Notes: generated from the sequence alone by a model not told the origin. Numbered from the stretch's first letter, positions 11,761-48,131 are shown. The stretch: 64,000 nt of DNA from Brevibacillus humidisoli (GCF_020923435.1 NZ_CP087263.1:885970-949969); one strand, 5' to 3'. Numbers and translations are program-made.

Positions 11761-12824
11761 ATGAAGTACAACGACAACTTTCTAAGAAGCTGTAGAAAAG
11801 AAGAAGTGGACACGATTCCGGTTTGGTACATGCGCCAGGCGGGCAGATATGACCCGGACTATCGCCGAATCAAGGAGAAGTACTCGCTATTGGAAATATG
11901 CGCGATACCGGAACTGGCTGCGGAAGTGACGATGATGCCGGTGAAAAAGCTAGGGGTAGACGCTGCCATCCTATACTCGGATATTATGAATCCTGTTGCA
12001 TCGATCGGGATTGACTTTGATATCGTCAAAAACGTTGGCCCGGTTATCCACAATCCAATCCGATCAGCCCGGGACGTGGAGCAGTTGCGTCCTATCGATG
12101 TGGAAGGGGATTTACCGCATGTTTTACAGACCATCCAGATCCTTGAGCGTGAACTAGCTGTGCCGCTCATTTCGTTTGTAGGTGCGCCGTTTACGATTGC
12201 CAGCTACCTGATCGAAGGCAAGTCTTCCAAGAAGTATGTAAAAACAAAAGCGCTGATGTACAATGAGCCAGAGCTTTGGGGTTCGCTGATGGACATATTG
12301 ACGAACATGGCTGTCACCTACATTCGAGCGCAAATGGGCGCGGGGGCAAAAGCGGTGCAGGTGTTTGACAGTTGGGTAGGGGCGCTCTCCCCCGGGGCTT
12401 CCGGAAGTATGTCCTGCCTTCACTCAAACGCATTTTCTCGGAACTGGCTGATCTTCCTCAGCCAAAGATCTATTATCCAGGTGTAAGTTCTGGTGAACTG
12501 CTATGCGAATTGAGAGAAATAGAAGCGGACGTGATCGGATTGGACTGGCGGGTATCGATCCGCGAAGGACGACAACGGGTTGGGGAACGATTCGTCATAC
12601 AGGGCAATCTCGATCCGACGGTGCTAACCGCACCCATACCAGTTATTCAACATTACGCCAGGCAGATCGTGGATCAGGGAGTCGAAAAACCAGGGTACAT
12701 ATTTAATCTCGGCCACGGCGTCTTTCCGGAAGCATCACTGGATCATTTAAAAGCTTTGACGGAATATGTGCACAACTATCCTGCAGCGGTGCTGCGAGAC
12801 ATGTCGGCAGGAAGGGGAGCCTGA
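11761..12824 (+). CDS. hemE: uroporphyrinogen decarboxylase HemE, frame broken by a 1-nt indel in the C5G4 run near 12393
   Basis: ORF 11761..12486 has the HemE N-terminus (PVWYMRQAGRY...) through QVFDSWVGALSP. ORF 12372..12824 continues FRKYVLPSLKRIF... in another frame. Adding one G in cccccgggg restores ALSPGGFRKY. Confidence 0.85.
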
Positions 12825-16052: not shown

Positions 16053-16068
16053 TGTGAGGGGCATCACT
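16053..16068 (+). promoter_or_regulatory. Fnr/Crp box TGTGA-N6-TCACT upstream of the qNOR gene, with a -10-like TATCGT at 16090-16095
   Basis: TGTGAGGGGCATCACT, a 9/10 match to TGTGA-N6-TCACA. Class II spacing to the -10-like hexamer. Confidence 0.45.
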
Positions 16069-16137
16069 TTATCCGTTTTGGTGGCGATGTATCGTTTACT
16101 TGCCTAATACAAACCAAACGGAAAGGAAGTAGATGAC

Positions 16138-18499
16138 ATGGCTGCCGAACCATCGAAGGGTTATATGCTGCAACCCGAACGAAGAACCCAACCGGGGCCC
16201 CAAAATGCTCTGCTCAAATCAGTACTGGTCTTTGTGCTGATTGCCAGCTTCTCTGTTTTGCTGCTGGGCGGTTACTGGATCTTCAAAGACCAAGCGCCGC
16301 GTCCCGAGAAGGTTGTCAGCGCTGCCGGAGATGTCCTCTTTACAAAAGAGCGCCTGATAGGAGGTCAGGCCGTTTTCCAAAAATACGGTCTGATGGATTA
16401 CGGCACCGTACTGGGACATGGTTCGTATCTCGGTCCCGATTACACGGCAGAAGCTTTGAAGGTGTATGTAGACGGCATGCACGCCTACTACGCACAAAAA
16501 GAGTACGCGATGCCGTTTGACCACCTGACGAGCGAGCAGCAAAACAAGATCAAGCAAGCAGTGATTGCGGAGATCAAGCAGAACCGTTATGACCCGAGTT
16601 CACAAACGTTGTATCTAACCGAGGCACAGGTCTCTGGACTGGATGATGTGCGAAAGTTCTATCGCCAGGTGTTTACAGCAGGGGACGGACACGGAATCCT
16701 GCCCGGTCTGATCAAGGAATCCGATGTCCCGGAAAACGGACGCCAGTACGTGGCTGAAGGCGATCAGATCACGCAAATCGCCGACTTTTTGGACCGCCTG
16801 GCTGTCCAGTACGTATCGGCCTGGTGAAGATATCACCTATACCAACAACTGGCCCTATTTCGAGGAGGCTGGAAACACGATGTCCTACTCTGCTTTGTGG
16901 TGGAGCGGGGCAAGTGCAACCCTGCTGATCTTGTTCATCGGCATCACTTTGTACATCCACCACGGCTACCGTTTTGACATGGAAGAGGCGTACCAGCCGG
17001 GCCATTTCCCCGTCATCAATCTGAAATTACTGCCGGTCACGCCGTCCCAGAGGAAAACGGGAAAATACTTCACAGTGGTCATCCTGCTGTTCTTAGTTCA
17101 GTCCTTGCTCGGCGGGCTATTGGCTCACTACTACCTGGAGCCAGATACGTTCTTCGGCGCGGATTGGGTAGCGGAGTGGTTCCCCTTCAGCATCGCCAAA
17201 TCGTATCACCTGCAGTTGGCGATCTTCTGGATCGCAACGGCCTGGTTGGGCATGGGCATCTACGTTGCTCCGCTGGTTGGAGGACGAGAACCAAAAAAAC
17301 AAGGGCTGCTTGTCGACATGTTGTTCTGGGCACTGGTCGTGCTTGTCGCTGGCAGTACGATTGGCGAGTGGTTGGGCATCAACGGCTATCTCGCAAACGC
17401 CTGGTTCTTGTTTGGCCACCAGGGTTGGGAATACCTGGAGTTGGGCCGCATCTGGCAGGTGGTACTCGCAATCGGCATGCTGATCTGGCTGTTCATCGTA
17501 TATCGGGGATTAAAGGACGGGCTCAAACAAGAGTCAGATAAAGGTGGTCTGATCCACCTGCTGTTTTACTCGGCAATCGCCGTGCCGTTTTTCTATCTGT
17601 TCGCGTTCCTGATCAATCCCGGAACACACTTCACGTTTGCCGATTACTGGCGTTGGTGGATTATTCACTTGTGGGTTGAGGGAATCTTTGAAGTATTTGC
17701 GGTTGTCGTAATCGGGTTTTTAATGGTGCAAATGGGTCTGACAACCAAAAAATCAACGGTTCGTGCCCTCTATTTTCAGCTCATCCTGCTGCTCGGTTCC
17801 GGGGTTATCGGGATTGGACACCACTACTACTACAACGGATCGTCCGAGGCCTGGATCGGATTGGGTGCGGTCTTTTCCGCTCTCGAAGTCATCCCGCTTA
17901 CATTGCTCATCCTAGAAGCGTACGGCCAGTATAAAATGTTGACGGATGGAGGGGAGATTTTCCCCTACAAAGCACCATTCTGGTTTCTTATTTCTGTTGC
18001 GATTTGGAACTTGGTTGGCGCGGGCGTGCTGGGCTTCCTGATCAACTTGCCGGCTGTCGCCTATTTTGAGCACGGCACAACCTTGACCCCGGCTCACGGA
18101 CACGGGGCCATGATGGGCGTATATGGCATGTTTGCCATTGCCGTACTCTTGTTCTCCTTGCGAAACATCGTCCAACCGGAAAAATGGAACGACAAACTGT
18201 TGAAAGTCTCCTGCTGGGGATTAAACATCGGGCTGGCCGGCATGATTCTCGTTACCCTGCTGCCGGTGGGCATGGAACAACTAAAAGTTGCTTATGAACA
18301 TGGCTTTTGGGCAGCACGTTCTGCAGACTTTTATCAGATCCCGCTTGTGAACATGCTGCTCTGGTGGCGTCTCGTGCCCGATTCCATCTTTATCGTGTTC
18401 GGTGTATTTCCGCTGACGTGGTTTGCCGTGAAGTCGCTGCTCCACCTGAGAAAACCGACGGTATCGGAAAACCCGATTGCTCCGTTCATACCAGTTTGA
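16138..18499 (+). CDS. norZ: quinol-dependent nitric oxide reductase large subunit (qNOR, NorZ/NorB), frame broken by a 1-nt indel near 16810
   Basis: ORF 16138..16827 is the N-terminal hydrophilic extension typical of qNOR. ORF 16724..18499 is the 12-TM heme-copper-oxidase-type domain with His ligand clusters (HHGYRF..., WIIHLWVEG, GIGHHYYYNG, PAHGHGAMMG). Removing one G of cgg near 16810 joins them as ...YVSPGEDITY.... Confidence 0.85.
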
Positions 18500-19180
18500 A
18501 TGTCGTACAGGTGGGGGATGGCTTACTGCTAGATTCGACCCAACTCTTTTGGACATACTTCACATTTGAAGCCGTTTGCAAATAGTCCAAGTCGGTAATC
18601 ATCATGGTTCTGTCATCCATGATCGTAATTGCTCCCGCTTGTTTCAAACTCCTCAGCGTCCGATTTACGCTTTCACGAGCGCGTCCAGCGTAGTCGGCCA
18701 ATTGGGAATGCGTCAGTTTCAAAGGAATATGAATTCCCTGATCAGTAGCCAATCCGTATGTATTGGACAACCGGATCAGAGTGGAACAGAGGGCCCCCGG
18801 CTTGCCGTGCATCATCAGATCCCGAAATTTTGTTTGCGTCAATTTGTGCATGTATCCCATCCAAAGTATGAAATCAATCGCCAAACCTGGGTCCTGCTAT
18901 AACAGCACTTCCAGTCGCTGTTTGAGATCAGGCCGATCTTGCATGGTCCAATCGTTTGCGCGGAAAAGCCATGCACGGTATCGCGATAAGGGTCCAGTTG
19001 TCCAAAAAAATCTCCTGCATGGTAGAGCCGTCTCAAGAAGTATATAAATGCGTACGGCGTCGGAGTGTGACCTAACTCACTGCAGGAACAGGTGATGAAG
19101 GTGACCTGCATCACAGAGGATAGAAATGATACCCCATATACTTTAGATGGAAGCACACTATGAATAGAAAGGAAGGATGA
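18486..19180 (-). pseudogene. Crp/Fnr family regulator paralog disrupted by multiple frameshifts
   Basis: ORF 18486..18884 encodes only the dimerisation helix and HTH (WMGYMHKLTQTKFRDLMMHGKPGALCSTLIRLSNTYG...TDLDYLQ), about 77% identical to the intact paralog at 23122. The cNMP-domain segment (LYHAGDFFGQLDPYRDTVHGFSAQTIGPCKIGLI) lies in another frame within ORF 18839..19402. Further upstream fragments (DAGHLHHLF) sit in a third frame. Confidence 0.55.
19065..19114. promoter_or_regulatory. two Fnr/Crp boxes in the scdA / Crp-paralog divergent region
   Basis: TGTGACCTAACTCACT (19065-19080) and GGTGACCTGCATCACA (19099-19114). A -10 TATACT at 19136-19141 sits ahead of scdA. Confidence 0.45.
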
Positions 19181-19183
19181 GAA

Positions 19184-19897
19184 ATGGAGCAACGCTATTC
19201 TGGAGAAGAAAAGATTGGTCATATTGTCTCTGAGTTTCCAGGAGCAAGCAACTTGTTCAAAGAACTGAAGATTGACTTTTGTTGCGGAGGCAACCGCAGT
19301 TTGGGGGATGCAATCCGCCAAAGGAAACTGGATGAAGGGGATGTGTTGCGTCGATTGAACAAAAGCTTTGCAGAATGGAAACAGAAAGAGGCACATGACC
19401 AAACGGATTGGCGGGTAGCCCCCATCTCAGAATTGATTGACCACATCATCCATGTTCATCACGCTTACTTGCGAGTAGAGCTTCCTCTGTTAAGTGAATT
19501 CATTACGAAGCTGCTTCGGGTTCATGGTCTCACCCACGGCGAGCTTTCCACATTGCATAGACAATTCCATCAAATGAAAATCGAACTGGAGCAGCACCTG
19601 ATGATCGAAGAGGAGTCGCTCTTTCCGCTGATGAAGGAATATGCGACTCATCCATCTCGGGCACTGCTCGAGAGAACCCTGAAAGGACTGCGGGATGTAG
19701 AAAACGATCACAGCGCAGTGGGCGACTATCTGCAGGAGATGAGAGCTGCAACAGAAGGATATGCCTTGCCGCATGATGCATGCAGAACATACACGATCAC
19801 GTTTCACAAACTGGTGGAGCTGGAATCGGATTTGTTCCAGCATATTCATCTGGAGAACAATATTTTGTTCCCCCGGATTGAGGAACAAGCGGTGTGA
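19184..19897 (+). CDS. scdA: iron-sulfur cluster repair di-iron protein ScdA/RIC (YtfE family)
   Basis: N-terminal ScdA_N motif (DFCCGGNRSL) and hemerythrin-like HHE cation-binding domains (HHAYLRVELP, ENNILFP). RBS GGAAGGATGAG. Confidence 0.85.
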   Translation: MEQRYSGEEKIGHIVSEFPGASNLFKELKIDFCCGGNRSLGDAIRQRKLDEGDVLRRLNKSFAEWKQKEAHDQTDWRVAPISELIDHIIHVHHAYLRVELPLLSEFITKLLRVHGLTHGELSTLHRQFHQMKIELEQHLMIEEESLFPLMKEYATHPSRALLERTLKGLRDVENDHSAVGDYLQEMRAATEGYALPHDACRTYTITFHKLVELESDLFQHIHLENNILFPRIEEQAV

Positions 19898-19937
19898 CAG
19901 GGGGAATGGAAAGACGAGAAAAGCCGTTTGTTTGGCA

Positions 19938-19979
19938 GCCCCGTAACGGATTCCCAGTTTCGGGGCTTGCTTTTTATTT
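19938..19979. terminator. bidirectional terminator between scdA and the convergent crp-family gene
   Basis: GCCCCG-(17 nt)-CGGGGC followed by TTGCTTTTTATTTATTTT. Confidence 0.55.
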
Positions 19980-20673
19980 ATTTTAGTTCCCTTTGTTGTT
20001 TTAACGCATCCAGATCGATAATGACGATGCGGCTTCGATCTGCTTTCAAGATATCTTCCTTGCCTAGTTGGTTCAGCAGCCGATTGATGGTTTCTCTCGT
20101 CGTGCCGACAGCATTGGCAAATTCCTGGTGCGTCATCGGCAGGTTGATCGTGATTCTGTTATCTTTCATCTCTCCGTGTTGTTCGGCCAGGTGCAACAAG
20201 AAAGAGAGCAGGCGATGTTTGACGTCCTGTCCAGACAACACTTGAAGCTTTTCTTGAAGCTCCCTGATTTTATCTCCCATCACACGCATTAACTTGATGG
20301 CGATCGGCGGGGTCTGCAGCATTAAACGCTCAAACAAACGCACCGGAATAGCCAACAGCTGCGTATCGACGATGGTTTCCGCCGTTGCCGGATAGGGATC
20401 TTGATTAAAAAAGCCGGTATGTGGAAACATGTCGCCGGACTTTAAAAACGAGACGATATGTTCGTGCCCGTCTTCGTCCGTTTTATACGTTTTGACCAAC
20501 CCTTCCCGAATGAAGAAGACAGCTTCCTTCTCGCTCCCTTCTGAAAAAATGACCGATTTTTTCGAAGCATACCGGGATATGGTGATTTCCTCTACTCGTT
20601 CTATTTCCTGCCTGTTCAGATCGCGGAATATGGGTACCTGTTGAAGAAATGTGGTCGTCCCTTCCTTTGTCAT
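19978..20673 (-). CDS. Crp/Fnr family transcriptional regulator (no Cys cluster)
   Basis: 231 aa from ATG 20673 (RBS GGAGGA). cNMP-binding-like domain followed by a C-terminal HTH (THQEFANAVGTTRETINRLLNQL). The ORF track's 53-codon N-terminal extension has no RBS. Confidence 0.8.
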   Translation of the reverse strand: MTKEGTTTFLQQVPIFRDLNRQEIERVEEITISRYASKKSVIFSEGSEKEAVFFIREGLVKTYKTDEDGHEHIVSFLKSGDMFPHTGFFNQDPYPATAETIVDTQLLAIPVRLFERLMLQTPPIAIKLMRVMGDKIRELQEKLQVLSGQDVKHRLLSFLLHLAEQHGEMKDNRITINLPMTHQEFANAVGTTRETINRLLNQLGKEDILKADRSRIVIIDLDALKQQRELK

Positions 20674-20817
20674 CTGAATCCTCCTCTTTTTATCTCTCAC
20701 CGTCCAAAGCTCTAGCAATATGGTACCACATGCAACAAACCTGCCACCATTGCTGGGAGAACGGATCGGAAGAAAAGTTTGACAAAATGGTGACCTCAGG
20801 TGCAAAAGCGGCAGATG

Positions 20818-20833
20818 TGTGACAGCTCTCACA
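20818..20833 (+). promoter_or_regulatory. perfect Fnr/Crp box TGTGA-cagctc-TCACA upstream of the radical SAM gene, with a -10-like TAGGAT at 20855-20860
   Basis: Exact 5+6+5 palindrome. Shared with the divergent crp-family gene. Confidence 0.5.
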
Positions 20834-20894
20834 TCTTGTGCCTGTCGCCTGGGTTAGGATAGATTCGGCGGTCGATCCAGGGAGAGGGGAAGTG

Positions 20895-21935
20895 ATGATG
20901 CTGCCTTTTATGAAGGAGAGAGATTATCGCGAGAATCCATTTATCGTCATTTGGGAGGTGACGCGGGCGTGCGCTCTAAAGTGCCTGCATTGCCGGGCTG
21001 AAGCGCAGTATCAGGCTGATCCCCGGCAGCTGTCATACGCAGAGGGGAAAAACCTTCTTGATGATATCGCCAGGATGGATCATCCATTGGTTGTCTTTAC
21101 GGGAGGCGATCCTCTGATGCGGCCTGATCTGTTTCATCTTGCTGAATATGCGATCCAGGAAAAAGGATTGTCGGTTTCCATGACACCTAGTGCGACCCCG
21201 AGGGTAACGCGGGAAGCAATTCGCCAGGCCAAGGAGGTAGGATTGTCACGCTGGGCGTTTAGTCTGGACGGTTCCTGCACCGGGATTCACGATCATTTTC
21301 GGGGTACAAAGGGGTCCTACGATCTGACGATGCGTGCGATTGGTTGGTTGCAGGAACTGGACATTCCCTTGCAAATCAACACCACAGTATCCCGTTACAA
21401 CCTGCACGATCTGGAAGCGATCGCTGAGAAAGTGAAGGAAATGGGTGCCGTGCTGTGGAGTCTCTTTTTCCTTGTACCGACCGGTCGTGGTATGGAGAAG
21501 GATATGATCTCTGCAGAAGAGCACGAAACCGTGATGAAGTGGTTATGCCGTATGGGACCCCACTTGCCATACAGTGTGAAAGCAACCGAGGCTCCGCATT
21601 ATCGCCGTGTCCTGTTGCAGGAGCGGGAAGGTACGGGAGCGGGTGGAGCAACGATTCCGAAGCGTGCAGATCTGCTCGGCCGGGCACCCCAAGGAGTGAA
21701 CGACGGAGACGGATTCGTCTTTATCAGCCACATCGGGGAGGTATATCCAAGCGGTTTTTTACCGGTAGTTTGCGGGAACATTCGCGAGACCTCTCTGGTG
21801 GAGATCTATCGATCCTCTCCAATCATGCAGGAACTGCGGGACAAGTCGCGATTGAAAGGAAAATGTGGCGTGTGCGAATTCAAGGATTTAGGCGGAGGTT
21901 CACGCGCCAGGGCGTATGCCGTAACCGGCGATTAA
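20895..21935 (+). CDS. radical SAM/SPASM domain protein
   Basis: CxxxCxxC (CALKCLHC) radical SAM cluster motif near the N-terminus. C-terminal Cys-rich SPASM-like region (CGNIRET...CGVCEF). Start ATGATG 20895 after GAGAGGGGAAG. The Fnr box lies inside the ORF track's upstream extension, so that extension is not coding. Confidence 0.75.
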   Translation: MMLPFMKERDYRENPFIVIWEVTRACALKCLHCRAEAQYQADPRQLSYAEGKNLLDDIARMDHPLVVFTGGDPLMRPDLFHLAEYAIQEKGLSVSMTPSATPRVTREAIRQAKEVGLSRWAFSLDGSCTGIHDHFRGTKGSYDLTMRAIGWLQELDIPLQINTTVSRYNLHDLEAIAEKVKEMGAVLWSLFFLVPTGRGMEKDMISAEEHETVMKWLCRMGPHLPYSVKATEAPHYRRVLLQEREGTGAGGATIPKRADLLGRAPQGVNDGDGFVFISHIGEVYPSGFLPVVCGNIRETSLVEIYRSSPIMQELRDKSRLKGKCGVCEFKDLGGGSRARAYAVTGD

Positions 21936-22007
21936 CTGGAGAGTGACCCATCTTGCGTTTATGTGCCCCGGAATGATCGGGCGAGATGATACGAAGGAGT
22001 GATTGAG

Positions 22008-22553
22008 ATGAACCAAATACCTCACTGCGGCATGATGGCGGGGCAGGGGGAACAGGTGAGACTTTGCAAAGCACTGGCCCAACTGAAGAGGGAGCATGGA
22101 CCGCTACGTGCACAAATGGATGCTTTTGCCGATGAGGCAGCTGTAGTTGACAAGGATCAGGCCGAAACAGACTGGGGCAAGCGGCTCTGGTTGTTGAGGG
22201 AAAAAGTGGATGCCTTTGTGCAAGAGCTGGAACCTCATTCCGAGCGGGAAGAAGGAACTCTTTTTCCGCTTATGGCCAAGTACATTGGCTGGCAGGGCGG
22301 GCCGATTGCCGTGATGGAGCATGAACACGAACTGGCAAAGCGGTACCTGAAGATGTTTCTAGAAGCGGTGGAACAACTCAAGGAACCGGTAGATGCCGCA
22401 CGGGCCAAAGAGATTGCTTCATATGCCCTGCAAGCCCATGCTGTTTTAACAGATCATTTCATGAAAGAAGAGAATGTACTCTTTCCGATGGCGGAAAACA
22501 TGTTGAACACGGAAGAAAAAGAGGAGCTAAACCGTGCGTTTGGCCTGTCCTGA
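22008..22553 (+). CDS. hemerythrin domain (HHE cation-binding) protein
   Basis: Helix-pair His/Glu ligands (HSEREEGTLFP, MEHEHELAKRY, LTDHFMKEENVLFP). RBS AAGGAG 9 nt before ATG 22008. Confidence 0.7.
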   Translation: MNQIPHCGMMAGQGEQVRLCKALAQLKREHGPLRAQMDAFADEAAVVDKDQAETDWGKRLWLLREKVDAFVQELEPHSEREEGTLFPLMAKYIGWQGGPIAVMEHEHELAKRYLKMFLEAVEQLKEPVDAARAKEIASYALQAHAVLTDHFMKEENVLFPMAENMLNTEEKEELNRAFGLS

Positions 22554-22733
22554 CATATTTTCTGCGGCAAATGGGCAATCGCCCCTGGTGGGATCCATTT
22601 GATAAGGCCGTACTCACTCTTTCAGGGGCATGATAGGAGACCTGGGAGGGCGTGTGGCAGAGGTTGCGATCGCTTGTCCAGCCGAGATACACAGAGTGAT
22701 CTATCATCTGATTGACAGGGGGGAGCGGAGGGT

Positions 22734-23087
22734 ATGCCGGATCAATTCATAACATCGACTGGAGCAAACACGGTTGAAATCCGCTCCTATACCATGGGGC
22801 AGGATGCCGTATTCCTCGTTACAGGGGGGGAAGCTCATATCGGGGCCGCAGCAACGGCCTTCTTTTCGGAAAAGCGGACATTTGCACGCACGTCATATCG
22901 CTGCCTGGCCATCGGGAAGGGGAACTAGCTGTCCAACTAGCCCAGATGGCTTGCCGCAGGTTAGGACGAACCGCTGCTGTACTGGTAGGTATTCATCTGG
23001 ATCAACCGTCTAAGCAGGAGATTGAGTCTATCGTAGTGGAAGCAAAAAAGAAGCTGAAGCAAACACTCACGCAATGGAACGATTGAT
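22734..23087 (+). CDS. hypothetical protein (about 117 aa), interrupted by an indel in the gggaagggg run at 22914-22922
   Basis: ORF 22734..22928 (MPDQF...VFLVTGGEAHIGAAATAF...CLAIGKGN) continues in frame +2 as ELAVQLAQMACRRLGRTAAVLVGIHLDQPSKQEIESIVVEAKKKLKQTLTQWND through 23087. Family unknown. Confidence 0.3.
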
Positions 23088-23121
23088 CACTTGATCTTCT
23101 TCCGTTTGCTCGCCATTGTGA

Positions 23122-23835
23122 TTAGATGCGACAGATCTCTCTCGGGCCATTTTGCCAATGACTGATTCGGCGCAGGTACGGCGGGTCCAGGATTACAATA
23201 CGACCGTCTTCATAAGAAACCGCACCTGCTTTTTTCAGACTGGCAAGAGAGCGGTTCACACTCTCTCTTGTCGTGCCAATCATATTTGCCAATTCTGTAT
23301 TGGTGAATCGTTGTGAGAGCAGGATCTGTGATTCTTTTTCAACCCCATAGGTATTCCCCAAGCGCAGCAACAGCGAACAAAGCGTCCCCGTCTTACCGAA
23401 CAACATCAGATCGCGCAATTTTGTCTGGGTCAGTCGATGCATCAGGCCCATCCATTTCACAAACTCCACAGACAGATCGCCATGCTGCCGCAGCAATGCT
23501 TCCAGTTCACGCTGCTGAACAATGCCAACAGTAGCATCCGCTATTATTTCCGCTCCGAAGTAATGAGTTGATGTTGCAAATGGGTCAATCTGACCAAACA
23601 TATCTCCTTCGTGATACAGATAAACAATCAGGGATTTCCCATCATCAACTGCTTTCGTTATGCGAACCTTTCCTTGGGAGAGGTAGTACAGCTTATCTGC
23701 CGGGTCGCCTTCTGAAAACAGGTGGGTACCTGCGGGGAACAACTTTTCAGACATGATCTCCTTCAGCTTGGAAAATACCTTTTCAGAAAAACAGAATGTA
23801 TTCTCTATGGTTGTTTTGAGATCGCTATGGATCAT
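23122..23835 (-). CDS. Crp/Fnr family transcriptional regulator (ArfM-like, single C-terminal Cys)
   Basis: 237 aa. cNMP-binding domain (LFSEGDPADKLYYLSQGKVRITKAVDDGKSLIVYLYHEGDMFGQ) followed by an HTH (NTELANMIGTTRESVNRSLASL). Confidence 0.8.
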   Translation of the reverse strand: MIHSDLKTTIENTFCFSEKVFSKLKEIMSEKLFPAGTHLFSEGDPADKLYYLSQGKVRITKAVDDGKSLIVYLYHEGDMFGQIDPFATSTHYFGAEIIADATVGIVQQRELEALLRQHGDLSVEFVKWMGLMHRLTQTKLRDLMLFGKTGTLCSLLLRLGNTYGVEKESQILLSQRFTNTELANMIGTTRESVNRSLASLKKAGAVSYEDGRIVILDPPYLRRISHWQNGPREICRI

Positions 23836-24099
23836 CAGCGACTTCCTCCCATCTTGTTTGTTTATCTTTCACTATAGAGAAATGGACTCTTGTATGGAGT
23901 GAGGAACATCACGCCCTATGATAGAGAGAGTCCGCACGGGACGGTCTCATCAGACTGCAGACAAAGTGCAGCGGCGTGGGGGAGAGCAGCTCTTTTCCTC
24001 CAGTCGCTCCGTTGCCAACCTGCGAGGAAGCGGGACTGTCCGCTGCGCCAGTCCGAAACGGGCGGTCGTGGCCAGTGGTCACCATTTTGTAAATAAGAA

Positions 24100-24115
24100 T
24101 GTGAAGTTTATCACT
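24100..24115 (+). promoter_or_regulatory. Fnr/Crp box TGTGA-agttta-TCACT upstream of narK
   Basis: A 9/10 match to the consensus, about 110 nt before the first NarK-like coding sequence. Confidence 0.4.
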
Positions 24116-24227
24116 TATCTGGGGAGCGATAGCCATTACATTTTAGTTGACAACGTCACCCTCGGAAAGGTGAGTGAAATGAAAAGAATTTTACCTGCAC
24201 TAGACAAACTGAAATATTTTACGAAGC

Positions 24228-25655
24228 GTGAACGCTACTCGGACGGTTGGAGCGAAATGTCTCCGTACGGGCGAGAGTGGGAGGATGGATATCGTTCCCG
24301 CTGGCAGCACGATAAGGTGGTTCGCTCGACGCACGGAGTGGTACCATGTTCGTCATCTCGTTTTTGTTCCTAATCGCACCTGTGTTTTACCTGAGTCGGG
24401 CCAATGCCTTTTGGGATTTGATCGTCAGTGGTTTTTTCTCGGGATCGGGGGAGCCATTTTTTCGGTAGGTGTCACATCGCTTCCCAAGTATTACAGCAAG
24501 GAAAAGCACGGATTGGTAAACGGTGTGTACGGGATGGGAAACATCGGTACGGCCGTGACGTCGTTTATGGCACCGGTTCTGGCCAACATGTTCGGCTGGA
24601 CGACGACGGTTCAGTTGATGATCGGGCTGCTTGCTCTCTTCGCCCTGCTCAACTTTTTGCTGGGAGACCGTAACGAGCCAAAAGTGCTGACGCCGCTCAA
24701 GTCTCAACTGCACAGCGTATCCCGCAATCCGAAGCTCTGGCTGCTCAGTTTGTTCTATTTTATTACGTTCGGAGCATTCGTTGCGTTTACCGTGTACCTG
24801 CCGAACTTCCTCGTCAGCCATTTTAATCTCGACAAGGTGGATGCCGGGTTTCGCACCGCTGGGTTCATTGTCCTCTGCACGCTGATTCGGCCGGTGGGAG
24901 GGTGGCTGGCAGACCGCTGGAACACGTTCGTCGTCCTGATGGTTGTCTTTGCCGGCCTTACCGCTGCCGGCGTGATTCTCTCTTTCTCACCTTCCATCAT
25001 CATGTACACAGCGGGGTGCATGCTGGTAGCGATCTGTGCGGGGATTGGCAATGGAGCCATCTTCAAACTGGTTCCGCAGTATTTTTTGCAGCAAGCCGGA
25101 ATTGCCAACGGGATCGTCGCCATGTTCGGCGGATTGGGCGGCTTCTTTCCGCCGCTGCTGCTGCAGCTGGTTGAGCAAATCACTGGGCAGATGGCGATCG
25201 GATTCATGGCTCTCTCTGAGCTTGCTCTGGCTAGCCTGATTCTGACGACCTGGTTGTACTACCAGGAACGGCTGCAGTTGTCCAAACGAATCATAGACAG
25301 TACGACACAAGGGATATTGCTGGCCGATCCCCGCGGCGTCATTCGCCAGGTGAATCCCGCTTTTACCACCCTCACCGGGTACGCAGAAGAGGAAGCGGTC
25401 GGGAAAACCCCGCGTATATTAAAGTCTGGTGAGCAGGATCGGTCATTTTATGAAAAGATGTGGAGATCGATCCGGGAGACCGGCAGTTGGCAGGGAGAGA
25501 TCTGGAACAGACGCAAGAACGGGGAAACGTATCTGGAGTGGCTGACGATCAGCTCGATCCGCGACGACGCGGGTGAGGTAAAATATTATATCGGGATGTT
25601 CAGTGACATAACAGCCAAACGACAGGAAGAGGCAACCCCAATCAAACGCTCTTGA
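24228..25655 (+). pseudogene. narK: NarK nitrate/nitrite MFS transporter fused to a C-terminal PAS domain, N-terminal region disrupted
   Basis: From about 24420 the frame-0 ORF tracks my recollection of B. subtilis NarK from TM3 onward (FLGIGGAIFSVGVTSLPKYYSKEKHG...GIGNGAIFKLVPQYF...GFFPPLLL). About 130 aa of PAS domain follow (ILLADPRGVIRQVNPAFTTLTGY...GEIWNRRKNGETYLEWLTIS...DITAKRQ). The NarK TM2 segment ([19 protein letters not shown]...DLIVSGFF) is in another frame (24316-24438), preceded by an in-frame TAA at 24313-24315. A frameshift sits in the T6 run near 24438. TM1 is not recognisable. Confidence 0.7.
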
Positions 25656-25701
25656 ACAACCGAACAAGTAGAAACCTTGGAACGCGCCGCTCCAAGGTTT
25701 T

Positions 25702-26409
25702 TTACATTTGGCAGATTTCCGGAGGGCAGTCATCACAATAAATGGCTTCTTTCAAGTAGGCAAGATTTTTGATCAGAATTTGTCCATAGGGGAGCAGTTC
25801 GATCACCTCTTGCTTCTTCAACTCTTGCAGCATCCGGTTGACGCTTTCCCTCGTCAGGCCAATTAACATGGCCAAGTCCTTATTGGTCATGGAGAGATCG
25901 ATGAGAATTCCGTCCGGATGAGGTTTGCCGTACGTATTGCTCATGCGAATCAACGTCGAATAGAGGGCTCCTATTTTTCCGTGGAGGAGCAAGTCGCGAA
26001 ATTTTGACTGCATCCGTCTGTTAATCATGCCCAACCAACGTAGAAACTCTACACAAAATTGGCTGTTCTTGATCAACATTTTTTCCAGCCCTTGGCGGGG
26101 GACCATCCACAATTCACCCACCTTTAGCATGGAAGCAGTGAGATTGTATGTCAGTTCTTGTTCGAACAACCCGGTAACACCGACAAGGTCCCCCTCGCTT
26201 GATATCTGCAGGGTCAGTTCCTTGCCGTCCATGGTGGTTTTTGTCAGCTTCACTTGGCCTGATTGAACAAAATACACCTGATCCGCTTTTTCACCATCTA
26301 AAAATAAAACGGTACCTGGAAAACATGTTTTCTTGGCAGCCAGTGTTTCAAGACATCGCAAAAAATCGGGAGAGACCTGTTCTGCAAAGGATAAGTTGTT
26401 GCCATTCAT
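25702..26409 (-). CDS. fnr: Fnr, Bacillus-type anaerobic regulator with a C-terminal [4Fe-4S] Cys cluster
   Basis: Crp/Fnr fold with an HTH (NKDLAMLIGLTRESVNRMLQEL). C-terminus ...AIYCDDCPPEICQM gives CxxCx4C, which matches my recollection of the cluster ligands of B. subtilis Fnr. Start ATG 26409 after GGGAGTG. Convergent with narK, as in the Bacillus narK-fnr neighbourhood. Confidence 0.85.
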   Translation of the reverse strand: MNGNNLSFAEQVSPDFLRCLETLAAKKTCFPGTVLFLDGEKADQVYFVQSGQVKLTKTTMDGKELTLQISSEGDLVGVTGLFEQELTYNLTASMLKVGELWMVPRQGLEKMLIKNSQFCVEFLRWLGMINRRMQSKFRDLLLHGKIGALYSTLIRMSNTYGKPHPDGILIDLSMTNKDLAMLIGLTRESVNRMLQELKKQEVIELLPYGQILIKNLAYLKEAIYCDDCPPEICQM

Positions 26410-26610
26410 GCGGGCTTCACTCCCAGTGGAAAATACATGACAACCATAGTATACCATCCAAGCATACCATCTGAGGTGGTCATTCTAATATAGTCATTCC
26501 TACCATGCTCATAAGTACGCAACCTGCCATTCAGAAGCATCCCTAAGGAAGTTCTTTTACCTTAATGTGACGAGTTTGTTCCTATTGTAGTCGGTGCAGG
26601 AGCAAGATGG

Positions 26611-26689
26611 TGTGACGAAGATCACAATGATCTGCTCGATTTTCTTCGTTTGACAAAAAAGCGTCACCATTTGTGTGAGCAATGTCACA
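26611..26689. promoter_or_regulatory. two perfect Fnr/Crp boxes between fnr and the heme-copper oxidase operon
   Basis: TGTGAcgaagaTCACA (26611-26626) and TGTGAgcaatgTCACA (26674-26689). Also TTGACA at 26650. Confidence 0.55.
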
Positions 26690-26996: not shown

Positions 26997-27115
26997 AAAA
27001 CAAAAGGGAAGATAGCAGAAATCTAAAGGGGACCTTGCTTTGTGTTTTTGCCCTGGGTCTGCTCATTCTCGCCTCGTGGTTCGGCATGTTGGCTATCTAC
27101 CTGTCCAGACAATAA
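26993..27115 (+). CDS. small single-TM protein (40 aa), possible oxidase subunit IIa-like
   Basis: Below the ORF-track cutoff. ATG overlaps the upstream stop. Sequence MKNKREDSRNLKGTLLCVFALGLLILASWFGMLAIYLSRQ, a basic N-terminus plus one TM. Followed 17 nt later by subunit II with RBS AAAGGAAG. Confidence 0.35.
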   Translation: MKNKREDSRNLKGTLLCVFALGLLILASWFGMLAIYLSRQ

Positions 27116-27132
27116 AGGAAGTAGGCGATCGT

Positions 27133-27618
27133 ATGCATATTCACCGGTATGAAAAGTATTGGCTGGTTTTTGGCTTTTTATCGATTGTAACTTTTATCGC
27201 GTTTATGTTTGTCATGACATTTTCCACAGGTCACCACACGGCCGGCGGCATGGAGGTGATTGATCCGGAGAAAGTAGCGGAGACACCTCCGTTTGACAAG
27301 CCGGGTCTTAAAAAAGTGGGGGAGAACACGTACGAAGCAGTCGTTGTCGCTATGGCTTTTGGCTACAATCCGGCCAAGCTGGAAATTCCCAAGGGAGCGA
27401 AAGTTCACTTCAAGGTGACCAGTCAAGACGTGATCCACAGTTTTAGCATTCCCGGAACGAATGTAAACATGCAGATCGTCCCCGGCCATATCAGTGAAAG
27501 AGAACACACCTTCGACAAGCCAGGGGAGTATCTCGTACTGTGCAATGAGTATTGTGGCACAGGGCACCATATGATGACAATGGAAATTGAGGTGGTAGAG
27601 CATGCCAACCATCAATAA
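27133..27618 (+). CDS. heme-copper oxidase subunit II (cupredoxin, CuA site), ba3/B-family type
   Basis: One TM plus a cupredoxin domain with CuA ligands H...CNEYCGTGHHMM. Short (161 aa), like CbaB. Confidence 0.8.
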   Translation: MHIHRYEKYWLVFGFLSIVTFIAFMFVMTFSTGHHTAGGMEVIDPEKVAETPPFDKPGLKKVGENTYEAVVVAMAFGYNPAKLEIPKGAKVHFKVTSQDVIHSFSIPGTNVNMQIVPGHISEREHTFDKPGEYLVLCNEYCGTGHHMMTMEIEVVEHANHQ

Positions 27619-29257
27619 AGATAACAAGCTCGCTTTTGCCTTTGTCGCTACAGCGTTCGCGTTCTTTTTTATCGGAACCATCTGCGGCCTGCTTCAAGGC
27701 CTGGTTCGCGGCGGATTGATTGAGCTTCCTTACTGGTTGAATTACTACAAGGTACTGACGACACATGGTATTTCTCTGGCACTCTTATTCACAACCTATT
27801 TTATCTACGGATTCTTTTATGCTGGAATACGCAGAACGATGGGAGAGTTGTCTGCAAAGGTACGGACAGCCGGCTGGACAGGGTTCTGGATGATGTTGAT
27901 CGGAACACTGATGGCCGTGGTGATGGTTTCATCTGATCAAGCAACGGTACTCTACACGTTTTATGCGCCATTAAAGGCCTCTCCTTTCTTTTATATCGGG
28001 TTGGCGCTCTTTGTTGTTGGGTCTTGGGTAAGTGGAATCTCCATGATCGCACACTATGCTCAGTGGAAGAAACGACATCCCAACCAAACCACGCCATTGT
28101 TCGGCTTTATGACCGTAGCCACCATCTTATTGTGGATTATCGCTTGTCTCGGGGTAGCCGCAACCGTTCTATTGCAGTTGATCCCGTGGTCTTTTGGTCT
28201 GACCGATAAAATCAATATTTTGTTAAGCCGAACGCTATTCTGGTATTTTGGACATCCATTGGTCTACTTTTGGCTGCTGCCCGCCTATATGTACTGGTAT
28301 GTTTCAGTGCCGAAGGTTGTGGGGGGCAAAATCTTTAGTGACAGCCTGGCTCGCTTAGCCTTTGTCATGTTCCTGCTGTTCTCCATCCCCGTCGGATTTC
28401 ACCATCAGCTGATGGAACCGGGTATCCACGAGTCTTGGAAGCTGATCCAAGTTGTGCTGACCCTGATGGTCGTTATTCCTTCTCTGCTAACTGCGTTTTC
28501 GATGTTTGCCACCTTTGAATCGGCTGGCAGAAACAAAGGGGCAAAAGGATTGCTGGGCTGGTGGACCAAGCTGCCTTACGGTGATGTTCGGTTCCTCGCT
28601 CCCTTCCTCGGCATGTTGTTTTTCGTCCCGGCGGGAATCGGGGGGATTATCAACACCAGTTATCAATTAAACGAAGTTGTTCACAACACGCTTTGGGTTG
28701 TGGGACACTTCCATATCACGGTAGGGGCCGCTGTCGTGATGAGCTTTTTTGGCATCGCGTACTGGCTGGTTCCTTATCTGACAGGGAGAAGGCTGACCAA
28801 AGCCTTGAACCGGTTAGGCGTTTTCCAAATCGTTTTATGGGCTGTCGGGATGTTCATCATGTCTACTGCGATGCATGTGTTGGGACTGTATGGAGCACCG
28901 AGAAGAACGGCGTTTAGCATGTACAACGATCATGCTGTTGCGCTCGACTGGTTCCGCGGTATCGTGGCCAACCAGTTGTATCTGCCGATCGGAGCGTTCT
29001 TTCTTTTCCTCTCTTCTATGCTGATGGTCTATCTGTTTGTCTATCTGGCCTGCCTCGCCCCCAAAGCTACGAGCCAGAACGCCGAGGAATTCCCTGTTTC
29101 TGAAGCAGAAAATAAGGAAGAGAGGCCGCCTGCTGTTCTTGATAACTGGAAGGTTTGGATCAGCGTTTGCGCTGTCTTGATCTTGCTGGCGTATACCGTA
29201 CCGGTGCTTGATATGATTCAGCATGCTCCCGGATCGCCTGGGTACAGAACGTGGTAA
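27602..29257 (+). CDS. heme-copper oxidase subunit I (B-family, ba3-like)
   Basis: 551 aa, about 13 TM segments. CuB/heme ligands GHPLVYFWLLP (His plus cross-link Tyr), GFHHQ, HNTLWVVGHFHITVG. Start overlaps the end of subunit II. Confidence 0.85.
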   Translation: MPTINKDNKLAFAFVATAFAFFFIGTICGLLQGLVRGGLIELPYWLNYYKVLTTHGISLALLFTTYFIYGFFYAGIRRTMGELSAKVRTAGWTGFWMMLIGTLMAVVMVSSDQATVLYTFYAPLKASPFFYIGLALFVVGSWVSGISMIAHYAQWKKRHPNQTTPLFGFMTVATILLWIIACLGVAATVLLQLIPWSFGLTDKINILLSRTLFWYFGHPLVYFWLLPAYMYWYVSVPKVVGGKIFSDSLARLAFVMFLLFSIPVGFHHQLMEPGIHESWKLIQVVLTLMVVIPSLLTAFSMFATFESAGRNKGAKGLLGWWTKLPYGDVRFLAPFLGMLFFVPAGIGGIINTSYQLNEVVHNTLWVVGHFHITVGAAVVMSFFGIAYWLVPYLTGRRLTKALNRLGVFQIVLWAVGMFIMSTAMHVLGLYGAPRRTAFSMYNDHAVALDWFRGIVANQLYLPIGAFFLFLSSMLMVYLFVYLACLAPKATSQNAEEFPVSEAENKEERPPAVLDNWKVWISVCAVLILLAYTVPVLDMIQHAPGSPGYRTW

Positions 29258-29492
29258 GCAAAAGCTTCCTAAATACGGCAAGCAAACAGGTAAGTTAGGA
29301 CGCAAACAACTCTGCCCGACACTATTGGTGGCGTGATAGCCGGACTAAGATAGGTGTCGGGCTTTCGCTCTTAAGCAGGCTGTGTTTGTGCAAAGATAGG
29401 CACACGAATAAGCATGGTTCCGTTCCAAGCATATCGTATTATGACCACCAATAATCAGGAGAGACAGGAACAGGGGAGCGGAAAAACGAACG

Positions 29493-29957
29493 GTGTATAC
29501 TGGTTCGAGGGGGTGGGCCATCATTGAATTCAGATCCCTATTGAGAAATATCAGGAGAAAAAAAGCGATCGGAGAGGGCGTCTATCGACGTGTCTATGAC
29601 CTAGGCAATGGTTATGTCTTAAAAGCAGCCAAATCCAGACCCGGCAGAAGGTGCAACAGAAGAGAAGTGAAGATATACAGATCTTCTCCCTATAAGATAA
29701 AAAAGCATCTTGGCAAAATCGTAGCGTATCGGGACGATTACCGGATGTTAATCATGAAAAAATACGTTCGGAAACTGCCTGCATCAAAAGAATATCAGCG
29801 GAAATTTCTTGAATTGGTAAGCCGATTTAAGCAGCACGGCATCATTCTGTATGATGTTGTGCGACGCCATGGAAGACCGAATGAACGGAATATACGTCTC
29901 AAGCCCAATGGTAGGATCGTTGTGATTGATTATGGAAATCTGAAACGCCGCAAATGA
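29493..29957 (+). CDS. small basic protein with a protein-kinase-like N-lobe (Gly-rich loop + VLK lysine), possible atypical or pseudo-kinase
   Basis: AIGEGVYRRVYDLGNGYVLKAAK resembles a GxGxxG loop plus the VAIK lysine. A later HGRPNERNIRL...IVVIDYG resembles the catalytic and DFG regions, but the catalytic Asp is replaced (HGR). Very Arg/Lys-rich. Start uncertain. Confidence 0.3.
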   Translation: MYTGSRGWAIIEFRSLLRNIRRKKAIGEGVYRRVYDLGNGYVLKAAKSRPGRRCNRREVKIYRSSPYKIKKHLGKIVAYRDDYRMLIMKKYVRKLPASKEYQRKFLELVSRFKQHGIILYDVVRRHGRPNERNIRLKPNGRIVVIDYGNLKRRK

Positions 29958-30072
29958 ACCATTTTCTCGACAGACCGCAAATAATCAGGGCAGTGAAAGC
30001 GTGAGATCCCGATCGTGTCCCGCTGTTGCATGACGTCCGAGTTATCTCAATCGGACGTCTTTTTTTCGGAGA

Positions 30073-30393
30073 CTACCAATCCCACTTGCTCTCCTTCAGA
30101 TTGAATCGGTAGGCAATGACATAAATCAGCGGTTCTTTCACACTCCTCAGCGAGTCTTCTGTGCAGCTTGACTCGGGTTTATACCCTAGTTGCTGTGCTT
30201 TTGACCATGTTGTCTCTCCCAGATTGTTGGTTTTTTCCGCCTGTTCAAAACAAGGTGGGGAAATCAACGTGCGATACGTGTGTTCCAGGATGATACGAGT
30301 GTCGGCGGGAGGACCGACGTCCACTTTTACGATAAACAGACTGACGAGTACCAGTACTGAAACAATAGACCAGATCACAGATTTGCTTCTCAT
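30073..30393 (-). CDS. hypothetical membrane-anchored protein (106 aa)
   Basis: N-terminal TM anchor (VIWSIVSVLVLVSLFIV) then an 80 aa polar domain. No family recognised. Confidence 0.3.
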   Translation of the reverse strand: MRSKSVIWSIVSVLVLVSLFIVKVDVGPPADTRIILEHTYRTLISPPCFEQAEKTNNLGETTWSKAQQLGYKPESSCTEDSLRSVKEPLIYVIAYRFNLKESKWDW

Positions 30394-30596
30394 CCGATTT
30401 CACCTCGCAGCCGATTATACCATGAAAGTCGCTGAATCAGACATTCTAAATGGAAGGCAGCAGCATAGAACATTCATGGGGTAAAGCCTTGCCTCTCAAT
30501 GCAGTATCCAATGATCAGAATAGGAAGGTGTGGCAGAAAAGAAGCTCCGCTTCGATGCTAGCGGAGCTGCAAGAGTAGATGGCGGACAACCTGTAG

Positions 30597-30788
30597 TTAA
30601 CTGCTGAAAAAACTGCCGCTGGAATGCTTTTTCTTGTAGTGGGTTTTCCCGTAGTAAGAATGCCCATGATGCTTGGACGGATGGTGCCGTTTCATGTACG
30701 TGTAGTCGCTGCTGCTGTACTTACGGTATTTGTGAGACGTTGAACTGCTGCCCAGCAGACTCTTGATCAGCTTTTTTAACACCTTCAT
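30597..30788 (-). CDS. His/Tyr/Lys/Ser-rich small basic protein (63 aa), possibly spore-coat-like low-complexity protein
   Basis: MKVLKKLIKSLLGSSSTSHKYRKYSSSDYTYMKRHHPSKHHGHSYYGKTHYKKKHSSGSFFSS. Composition recalls CotG-type coat proteins. Speculative. Confidence 0.25.
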   Translation of the reverse strand: MKVLKKLIKSLLGSSSTSHKYRKYSSSDYTYMKRHHPSKHHGHSYYGKTHYKKKHSSGSFFSS

Positions 30789-31085
30789 CGCTCCCTTTTC
30801 CGGTCTTACCTTCTTTTACGTATTTAGCAGGTTGAAAGTTGCGAAATCGCTCTGTTATAAACATGTAACCAACTCGACTTTCGTGGCACAGCATACAACT
30901 GGATGCCCGTGCTTGGCCGACTAGAAAGTATTCCTTTATTATCCAGACTACTATTGATATGATAGATTCGTGCATGTGCTATCTGTTTTGGATTTCCGGA
31001 TGGTCCAACAGTGCTTGTTCCGCGATGGGAACCAAGTATCCTGCGACAAAAGCATTTGCACTCGACATGTGTGGGACATGTATGA

Positions 31086-31113
31086 TGAGGTTCGAATCCT
31101 CAATCGCCTTTCA
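31086..31113 (+). other. tRNA 3'-end-like fragment (T-arm + acceptor 3' strand), possible integration-site remnant
   Basis: TGAGG-TTCGAAT-CCTCA (canonical T-stem and T-loop), then ATCGCCT, T, TCA. No complementary 5' acceptor strand (AGGCGAT/GGGCGAT) or D / anticodon arms within 80 nt upstream. Confidence 0.3.
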
Positions 31114-31442
31114 CGCGATTAACTCAATGAGCACTCGGCTGTCGCCGGGAAACTAACAAGCAAACGCCCCTTTTGAATCCTCAGCGGTGTTCGTCTCGGA
31201 CATGCGCACTGAATCGGCCGCTCTGCAGGCTGGCGGATACCGGGGGGTTGCCTCATTTCTGCACGGAAAAGATTAGGTTCCTCTCTAGGAAATGGTTGAG
31301 ATGACCTCCGCTTTTCTGCCCAGCTCTGAGGTCCCTACCTCAAGCCAGACTCCGCTGCTGATTCAGGAGGATTCTAAAAGGATGGCGGGAAAACAAATGC
31401 AGCCACGCTTCTTTAGACTTGTACAATAATGGGGAGTTAAAG

Positions 31443-48112: not shown

Positions 48113-48131
48113 ACAGAAAGGTGGATAACCC

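Follow-up and report, generated by a model that had tools for sequence, protein, structure and literature searches.

The 64,000-nucleotide stretch of Brevibacillus humidisoli DNA analysed here (GCF_020923435.1 NZ_CP087263.1:885970-949969; hereafter the window, with positions counted from its first letter) contains, on the plus strand, one open reading frame (ORF) of 475 codons at 24228..25655. Its translation of 475 amino acids comprises the body of a NarK transporter of the major facilitator superfamily (MFS), followed by a C-terminal PAS domain. A first-pass annotation had described this ORF as a narK-PAS fusion gene, the N-terminus of which was destroyed by a nonsense codon and a frameshift. 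Here, we describe the genes at this locus and compare them with those of relatives. The N-terminus appears instead to have been removed by a single deletion of about 6.5 kb, together with the greater part of narG and the whole of narH, narJ and narI, and the locus is very probably the deletion scar of a narGHJI-narK(PAS) operon.

Organization of the locus

The features from the nar promoter to the end of the PAS domain are the following.

24100..24115, plus strand: Fnr/Crp box TGTGAAGTTTATCACT, a kept nar promoter element, 64 nt upstream of the narG start (pattern search)
24164..24174, plus strand: Shine-Dalgarno-like sequence GGAAAGGTGAG, which precedes the narG ATG at 24179 (read from the sequence)
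24179..24340, plus strand: narG', codons 1-54 of the gene for the respiratory nitrate reductase alpha subunit (Pfam, NCBIfam, tblastn)
24340..24346, plus strand: predicted deletion junction, between 24340 and 24341 (codon-registered DNA alignment to narG and narK of L001)
24346..24434, plus strand: narK segment 1, codons ~73-102, transmembrane helix (TM) 3 and the start of TM4 (tblastn, translation, helix map of an orthologue)
24432..24437, plus strand: T6 homopolymer with a -1 frameshift, one T short of GGT TTT TTT CTC (G F F L)
24435..25283, plus strand: narK segment 2, the rest of TM4 to TM12 and a linker helix (Pfam, tblastn, alignment to E. coli NarK)
25284..25625, plus strand: flavin-type (MmoS/NifL) PAS domain that continues the frame of the MFS part, with a stop codon at 25653-25655 (Pfam, sequence matches in the Protein Data Bank (PDB))

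The segment narG' matches PF14710 (Nitr_red_alph_N) with an E-value of 5.6e-13 and 49.4 bits against a cut-off of 24, and the N-terminal NarG-specific segment is present. It covers positions 3-56 of the 1235-position profile TIGR01580 (E 2.2e-16), failing the whole-protein cut-off (58.7 bits vs 1084), and it is 88.9% identical to residues 1-54 of NarG from Gordoniibacillus kamchatkensis (G. kamchatkensis) over 24179-24340 by tblastn. The fragment ends in ...STHGV; the FS0 ligands (H-x3-C-x3-C...), the molybdopterin-binding domains and about 1170 residues in all are missing. Its frame continues through unrelated sequence to a TAA at 24371-24373, making an ORF of 64 amino acids.

The MFS and PAS parts lie in a single frame as the first-pass annotation had proposed, and neither Pfam nor the ORF scan revealed a stop between them. 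MFS_1 (PF07690) matches ORF residues 68-307 (E 2.6e-28) and TIGR00886, the NarK family of NCBIfam, matches residues 69-305. The profiles PAS_9 and PAS match residues 353-466 (E ~3e-18), with PAS_9 covered over positions 2-103 of 103 (E 2.6e-18). From the FLGIGG helix to its end, homology to NarK runs in one frame, which agrees with the earlier reading: positions 24435-25622 correspond to residues 103-498 of the closest NarK-PAS protein, P0001 of G. kamchatkensis (510 amino acids, 79% identity to the frame-corrected protein), with 79.8% identity over 396 amino acids in tblastn. The family cut-off of TIGR00886 was failed (137.2 bits vs 311.7), with only profile positions 99-368 matched, because the N-terminal quarter of the protein is missing. 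The GTG at 24228 is merely the first start codon after an in-frame stop and is without biological meaning.

Helices of the truncated transporter

The AlphaFold model of the orthologue (mean predicted local distance difference test score 85, predicted template-modelling score 0.77) has 12 TM helices. The first four consist of residues 3-25 (TM1), 40-68 (TM2), 70-89 (TM3) and 94-121 (TM4), and TM12 continues as a single helix, 355-390, into the PAS domain, 395-493. The window copy does not have twelve helices in one frame. TM3 is in a frame different from that of the main body, and TM1 and TM2, which had been considered unrecognisable in the case of TM1, are absent altogether (residues 1-72): what precedes 24341 is the beginning of narG. 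The out-of-frame piece, assigned earlier to TM2, is TM3 and the start of TM4, according to both the alignment to E. coli NarK and the helices of the orthologue model. In the alignment to PDB entry 4U4T, the essential substrate-binding arginine R89 of E. coli NarK (TM2, LLRVP) corresponds to R58 of the orthologue (LRVP), which lies inside the missing segment. The TM8 arginine (E. coli R305) and the glycine-rich nitrate-signature motifs of TM5 and TM11 are kept. The motifs LIRPVGGW, GMGNIGTA and FGGLGGFFPP are all present in the remnant, and their columns are invariant among 47 sequences.

Reading frames and the T6 run

Three reading frames are involved: narG' is in frame 2, the TM3 piece in frame 1 and the rest of narK in frame 3, so no fusion protein is made. 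NarK-PAS residues 73-111 match positions 24346-24462 with 66.7% identity (tblastn). The end of the TM3 piece, ...DLIVSGFF, and the start of the main frame, LGIGGAIF..., would join if GGTTTTTTCTC carried seven T and not six; in the sequence as given, the ORF from the ATG at 24346 ends after 40 codons. Of the two lesions in the earlier account of the damage, the frameshift is thus found, at 24432-24437, and the nonsense codon is not. The TAA at 24313-24315 shares the frame of TM3, but it sits inside the narG codons CAC GAT AAG GTG, read out of frame, and is therefore not a narK nonsense mutation.

The chance that the T6 shift is a sequencing artefact and not a mutation is roughly even. The shift is secondary, and this question is immaterial to the verdict on the gene, because the deletion alone inactivates it, and the earlier suspicion that this copy is inactive is supported.

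The narG/narK junction

Homology to narG at the DNA level stops at 24340, after ...ACGCACGGAGTG, and homology to narK picks up at about 24346. At the junction, ...CACGGAGTG is followed directly by GTACCATGTTC..., and narG' is joined to about codon 73 of narK. A KpnI site, GGTACC, occupies 24340-24345 and is followed by the ATG at 24346. In tblastn searches with the nar operon of G. kamchatkensis, narH, narJ, narI and the remainder of narG had no match anywhere in the 64-kb window.

The gene for P0001 is the fifth of the row narG-narH-narJ-narI-narK(PAS) and follows narI after 28 nt; a Crp-family gene precedes the row. The same contiguous order is found in a Bacillota metagenome-assembled genome (MAG), L004. 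In two other relatives, L009 and L016, narGHJI lies ~3.8 kb upstream of narK-PAS. A single deletion explains the locus in B. humidisoli, because the closest relative has the five genes in this order on one strand. The missing DNA spans ~6.55 kb in G. kamchatkensis coordinates and ~6.5 kb in those of L004. The short narG' is not a normal leader of narK-PAS, because none of the five relatives without an adjacent nar operon has a stand-alone narG-like fragment before the gene.

The identity of narG', the junction, the missing genes, the relations among the frames and the conservation of the fusion elsewhere are direct observations; that the ancestor had the gene order of G. kamchatkensis is what we infer. 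The starting point would have been an operon narG-narH-narJ-narI-narK(PAS) under the control of Fnr. One deletion, from narG codon 55 to narK codon ~72, would have left on the upstream side the nar promoter with its Fnr box, the ribosome-binding site and 54 narG codons, which run into out-of-frame narK and reach a stop after 64 codons. On the downstream side, the survivor would be the 3' 85% of narK-PAS, which is to say TM3-TM12, the linker helix and the flavin-type PAS domain. The predicted outcome is a pseudogene scar, with neither a nitrate reductase nor a nitrate/nitrite antiporter made from the locus.

Conservation of the remnant

The frame-corrected remnant was compared with 46 homologues (62-79% identity) in a leave-one-out test. 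It deviates from the family at two strictly invariant columns, compared with 0-5 for intact homologues, and at three columns conserved in at least 95% of sequences, L226M, A260M and T327A, compared with 0-9. The test thus shows no excess of changes at invariant columns that would indicate relaxed selection on the remnant. The loss appears to be recent, because the remaining 407 codons are uninterrupted and nearly all family-invariant residues are kept; the deletion can be called evolutionarily recent on this basis, any finer dating being outside the reach of the conservation test. The copy is an ordinary pseudogene remnant and belongs, in degraded form, to a subfamily that is already catalogued.

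The promoter and the neighbouring regulators

With the pattern TGTGA-N6-TCACA and at most one mismatch, nine Fnr/Crp boxes are found in the window against 1.95 expected. They lie before norB, scdA and narG' and in two intergenic regions, crp/radical-SAM and fnr/cbaB. Rfam searches of the whole window, and of 23800-24400 at a relaxed threshold, found no RNA element in the narG leader, and the folding of the GC-rich segment 23900-24100 was not significant (z = -1.8). Under the Fnr-controlled promoter there is now a nonsense ORF of 64 codons.

Three further features flank the remnant.

23122..23835, minus strand: Crp/Fnr-family regulator, divergent from the nar promoter (Pfam cNMP_binding and HTH_Crp_2)
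25672..25700, no strand assigned: 13-bp stem-loop between the convergent narK-PAS and fnr, T-rich after it on the plus strand (terminator scan)
25702..26409, minus strand: fnr orthologue (Pfam), with a C-terminal C-x2-C-x4-C that resembles the cluster ligands of Bacillus Fnr

The crp gene at 23122-23835 has 58% identity (tblastx) to the Crp gene upstream of the nar operon in G. kamchatkensis. Its product is not an Fnr orthologue, because it has one C-terminal Cys. The product of 25702-26409 is 100% identical to B. humidisoli WP_230045388.1 / UFJ41764.1 (235 amino acids), its next match being at 73%, and it matches with 69% identity a gene in the same convergent position in Brevibacillus fluminis (B. 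fluminis). The crp and fnr flanks are syntenic with those of relatives. The convergent narK-PAS and fnr probably share the stem-loop as their terminator; in the scan, only the minus strand gave a score.

The NarK-PAS family and its PAS domain

The rarity that the first-pass annotation ascribed to the fusion did not hold up. All 120 best database matches to the frame-corrected protein are of 462-520 amino acids and carry PF07690 together with PAS families. They come from Gordoniibacillus, Brevibacillus, Paenibacillus, Bacillus haynesii, B. paralicheniformis ('NarT'), Heyndrickxia, Mesobacillus and others, and genome scans add Metabacillus, Sediminibacillus, Lederbergia and Paucisalibacillus. 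There are at least 120 protein clusters of NarK-PAS across Bacillales, each of ~500 amino acids. Fused proteins are the norm in Brevibacillus, Paenibacillus, the Bacillus licheniformis group, Mesobacillus, Metabacillus and others; the fusion is conserved and catalogued, and not unusual for the clade. A search of relatives for separate MFS and PAS genes upheld the fusion, the homologues being single ORFs of ~500 amino acids with both domains. Single tblastn high-scoring segment pairs span MFS and PAS in seven genomes or MAGs, in addition to one metagenome-derived contig that was not re-checked. We found no published study of a NarK-PAS fusion in the literature.

The PAS fold scores well above the Pfam threshold (PAS_9, 66.6 bits vs a cut-off of 27). 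Among solved structures its best sequence matches are MmoS (3EWK, E 2.2e-30) and NifL (2GJ3, E 1.9e-19), followed by LOV domains. W373, the F-alpha tryptophan, and N388, the equivalent of MmoS N164 (PMC9668731), are invariant among the 47 sequences (frame-corrected numbering). The F-alpha tryptophan has been named the primary determinant of flavin adenine dinucleotide (FAD) binding (PMC10468136). The positions of the N5-proximal residues MmoS H132 (NifL E70) and R195, and that of T103, are occupied by Pro, Phe and Ala in the window copy and by Pro, Phe and Thr in the family; at the position of T327A, Thr is found in at least 95% of the family. The PAS domain of the NarK-PAS family likely binds a flavin cofactor. 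Through this domain, we infer, intact members would feed a flavin-based redox or O2 signal into transport.

The remnant is closer to the protein of Gordoniibacillus (79%) than to that of B. fluminis (69%). Genome and metagenome scans yielded nothing closer than 79% to the frame-corrected protein. The relationship hints that the nar operon may have been acquired horizontally.

Weighing of the alternatives

Several observations weigh against a deletion scar. No contig of the same species was found in genome, metagenome or protein collections, and the order before the deletion and its exact size are therefore taken from a relative that is only 79-89% identical. In other Brevibacillus (B. fluminis, L002), narGHJI does not lie beside narK-PAS. 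The junction is known from assembled sequence and not from reads, which may formally allow a mis-assembly. The KpnI site at the junction would also fit an engineered deletion, though its motif is not enriched in the window.

A sequencing or assembly artefact is the best of the alternatives, and it is unlikely. In its weaker form only the T6 run would be wrong, and in its stronger form the 6.5-kb deletion itself would be mis-assembled. The B. humidisoli assembly is a single contig of 4,908,260 bp, which suggests a long-read assembly, and each of the four small frameshifts that were located in the window falls in a homopolymer (narK T6, norB T5, hemE C5/G4 and PAC_bac A4), with hemE, normally a housekeeping gene, among the broken ones. 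Three genes in addition to narK are thus affected.

16138-16827 / 16724-18499, plus strand: norB, quinol-type nitric oxide reductase (qNOR), split at a T5 run at 16786-16790 (...IADF / FWTAWLSS...)
11761-12486 / 12372-12824, plus strand: hemE, uroporphyrinogen decarboxylase, interrupted at ~12389-12397, where a C5/G4 run carries a -1 shift
22734-23086, plus strand: small PAC_bac gene (bacterial proteasome-assembly-chaperone-like), split by a -1 shift near 22866-22873, in an A4 run (tcggaaaagcgg)

The first norB ORF covers positions 1-157 of 181 of the NorB_cytochrome_c-like profile and the second covers 157-181 and COX1; an Fnr box lies upstream at 16053. The gene hemE, the first of the row hemE-hemH-hemY-ywiC, is broken at position 214 of the URO-D profile, which suggests either a sequencing error or genuine heme auxotrophy. 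In PAC_bac, the N-terminal part matches profile positions 4-47 and the C-terminal part positions 72-113. Errors of this type cannot create a 6.5-kb deletion, however, and the DNA comparison revealed no repeat common to both breakpoints on which an assembly could have collapsed. Two long ORFs in the window, of 1576 and 1020 codons and rich in homopolymers, are intact, so that the error rate is not extreme, and a correction of the T run would still leave a gene without TM1-TM2 and without its own start.

Expression of a truncated product is very unlikely. If the run held seven T, the ATG at 24346 would open an ORF of 436 amino acids comprising TM3-TM12 and PAS; with transcription from the Fnr-dependent narG promoter, its product could persist as a membrane-anchored PAS protein. 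A GGAG at 24335-24338 stands seven nucleotides before this ATG, the frame-corrected ORF is uninterrupted and well conserved, and the nar promoter and its Fnr box are kept. The pair of Shine-Dalgarno sequence and ATG is, however, a by-product of the junction, with the GGAG derived from narG codons, and the ORF as given stops after 40 codons. With TM1-2 and the TM2 arginine gone, the remaining ten-helix MFS protein would hardly be expected to fold or transport, and a recent deletion explains the conservation equally well.

It is extremely unlikely that a stand-alone narK-PAS gene was inactivated in place by the TAA at 24313 and the frameshift, with TM1 decayed. This account draws on the frame that the TAA shares with the TM3 segment and on the frameshift at 24432-24437, but the surroundings of the TAA are narG, at 89% amino-acid identity in another frame. 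NarK residues 1-72 have no residual similarity in any frame by tblastn, and so complete a decay cannot be reconciled with the 407 codons next to it, which are conserved almost perfectly.

An engineered laboratory strain in which the nar operon was deleted, with a KpnI scar left by cloning, has an equally negligible chance: GGTACC lies exactly at the junction, but GTACC can be read as the native narK codons Arg-Thr (compare ...GARTLF in the homologue P0002), the motif is not enriched in the window (11 vs 10.2 expected at up to one mismatch), both endpoints fall within genes and do not keep the frame, a poor choice for a designed construct, and we estimate that ~7% of random junctions would carry some palindromic hexamer.

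A natural deletion scar being the preferred reading, the locus would record a recent loss of the nar operon at this site. Respiratory nitrate reduction is predicted to be absent from the strain, provided that the genome holds no other nar or nap system. For annotators, the locus is a warning that a long ORF of 475 codons need not be a gene; this one is not. The window copy adds nothing to the question of gating beyond pointing to the family, and its modest interest is that of the family and not of the copy. Intact NarK-PAS proteins are widespread and easily obtained (B. licheniformis group, Brevibacillus), and they offer a handle on O2 or redox control of nitrate transport at the protein level.

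Other features of the window

The region 16053-26689 forms an anaerobic N-oxide island under apparent Fnr/Crp control. It contains norB, scdA/RIC (19184-19897), a radical-SAM/SPASM gene, a hemerythrin/DnrN-like gene (21999-22553) and the nar remnant, together with three genes of the Crp/Fnr family (19978-20832, 23122-23835 and 25702-26409). Adjoining these genes, at 27040-29257 on the plus strand, is a two-subunit heme-copper oxidase with a COX2/cupredoxin subunit of 192 amino acids and a COX1 subunit of 551, preceded by two perfect Fnr boxes (26611 and 26674). Either of two roles may fit it, oxygen reduction with induction at low O2, or NO reduction as a member of the heme-copper superfamily. 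The following ~2 kb, 29260-31400, hold no convincing gene, only short and poorly scoring ORFs; a Lys/Arg-rich ORF of 154 amino acids without a Pfam match is found at 29493-29957, and a His/Lys/Ser-rich ORF of 63 amino acids at 30597-30788 on the minus strand.

A trans-AT polyketide synthase (PKS) cluster, cut into several ORFs, occupies 43301-57417 on the plus strand. It consists of an AT-AT-ER protein of 1020 amino acids, followed by ACP, KS, DH, KR and MT-ACP-KS-ECH pieces. The first residues of ORF 51967-52686 already match position 76 of the KR profile, and this ORF is not in the frame of 50064-51962; this PKS gene, too, is probably frameshifted. At 46360-47137 (plus strand), the N-terminal half of an alpha/beta-hydrolase (profile positions 1-107 of 217) runs into the C-terminal end of a ketosynthase in another frame, at ~46755-46770 (...NPHIRIENSPFYF...PRRATVSSFGAGGSLGHLILEEH). 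This has the appearance of another deletion junction, within the PKS cluster. It reads GGTTACCATGG and resembles GGTACCATG of the nar junction; a recombination motif common to the two, GGT(T)ACCATG at ~46750 and at the nar junction, was considered and rejected, its 11 occurrences against 10.2 expected being attributable to chance.

Comparison with known systems

The proteins most similar to the window copy are NarK-PAS of G. kamchatkensis and the other Bacillales proteins of ~500 amino acids named 'nitrate/nitrite transporter' or 'NarT', which have the same MFS part, linker helix and PAS domain in one ORF. They have in common with the window copy the nitrate-signature motifs, the TM8 arginine and the PAS F-alpha Trp and Asn, and P0001 is 79% identical to it over TM4-PAS. 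The window copy differs from P0001 in lacking residues 1-72 (TM1-TM2, with TM3 partly affected), in being joined out of frame to narG' and in the frameshift at about codon 102.

The best Foldseek matches of the orthologue model are E. coli NarK and NarU (PDB 4JR9, 4U4T and 4IU8), with target-normalised template-modelling scores of 0.72-0.75. E. coli NarK aligns to the orthologue in sequence across TM1-TM12 with an identity of only 22-24%, and the equivalents of R89 and R305 and the glycine-rich signatures are present in intact NarK-PAS members. These classical nitrate/nitrite antiporters, with B. subtilis NarK (395 amino acids) among them, end shortly after TM12 and have no PAS domain; the alignment of E. 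coli NarK (4U4T) ends at residue 380 of the orthologue.

MmoS PAS-A (3EWK) and NifL PAS1 (2GJ3), which bind FAD, are the solved domains closest in sequence to the PAS domain of NarK-PAS, which differs from them in having Pro at the H132/E70 position and Phe at the R195 position. The output in NarK-PAS is a transporter and not a kinase.

To our knowledge, NarK2 of Mycobacterium tuberculosis (M. tuberculosis) has no PAS domain. This respiratory nitrate transporter is inactivated by oxygen, 'by an unknown mechanism' (PMC3445494). Its activity, and not transcription alone, responds to oxygen or redox state, and its link to NarK-PAS is one of analogy only. The PAS domain of the Bacillales antiporters, rigidly joined to TM12, might switch transport according to redox state or O2, which we propose tentatively and consider somewhat doubtful. 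If true, it would provide a concrete mechanism for the long-observed post-translational inhibition of nitrate uptake by oxygen. The NarK1-NarK2 protein of Paracoccus denitrificans, encoded within the nar operon (PMC5217062), is also a natural fusion based on NarK, but it joins two transporters, and NarK-PAS joins a transporter to a sensor.

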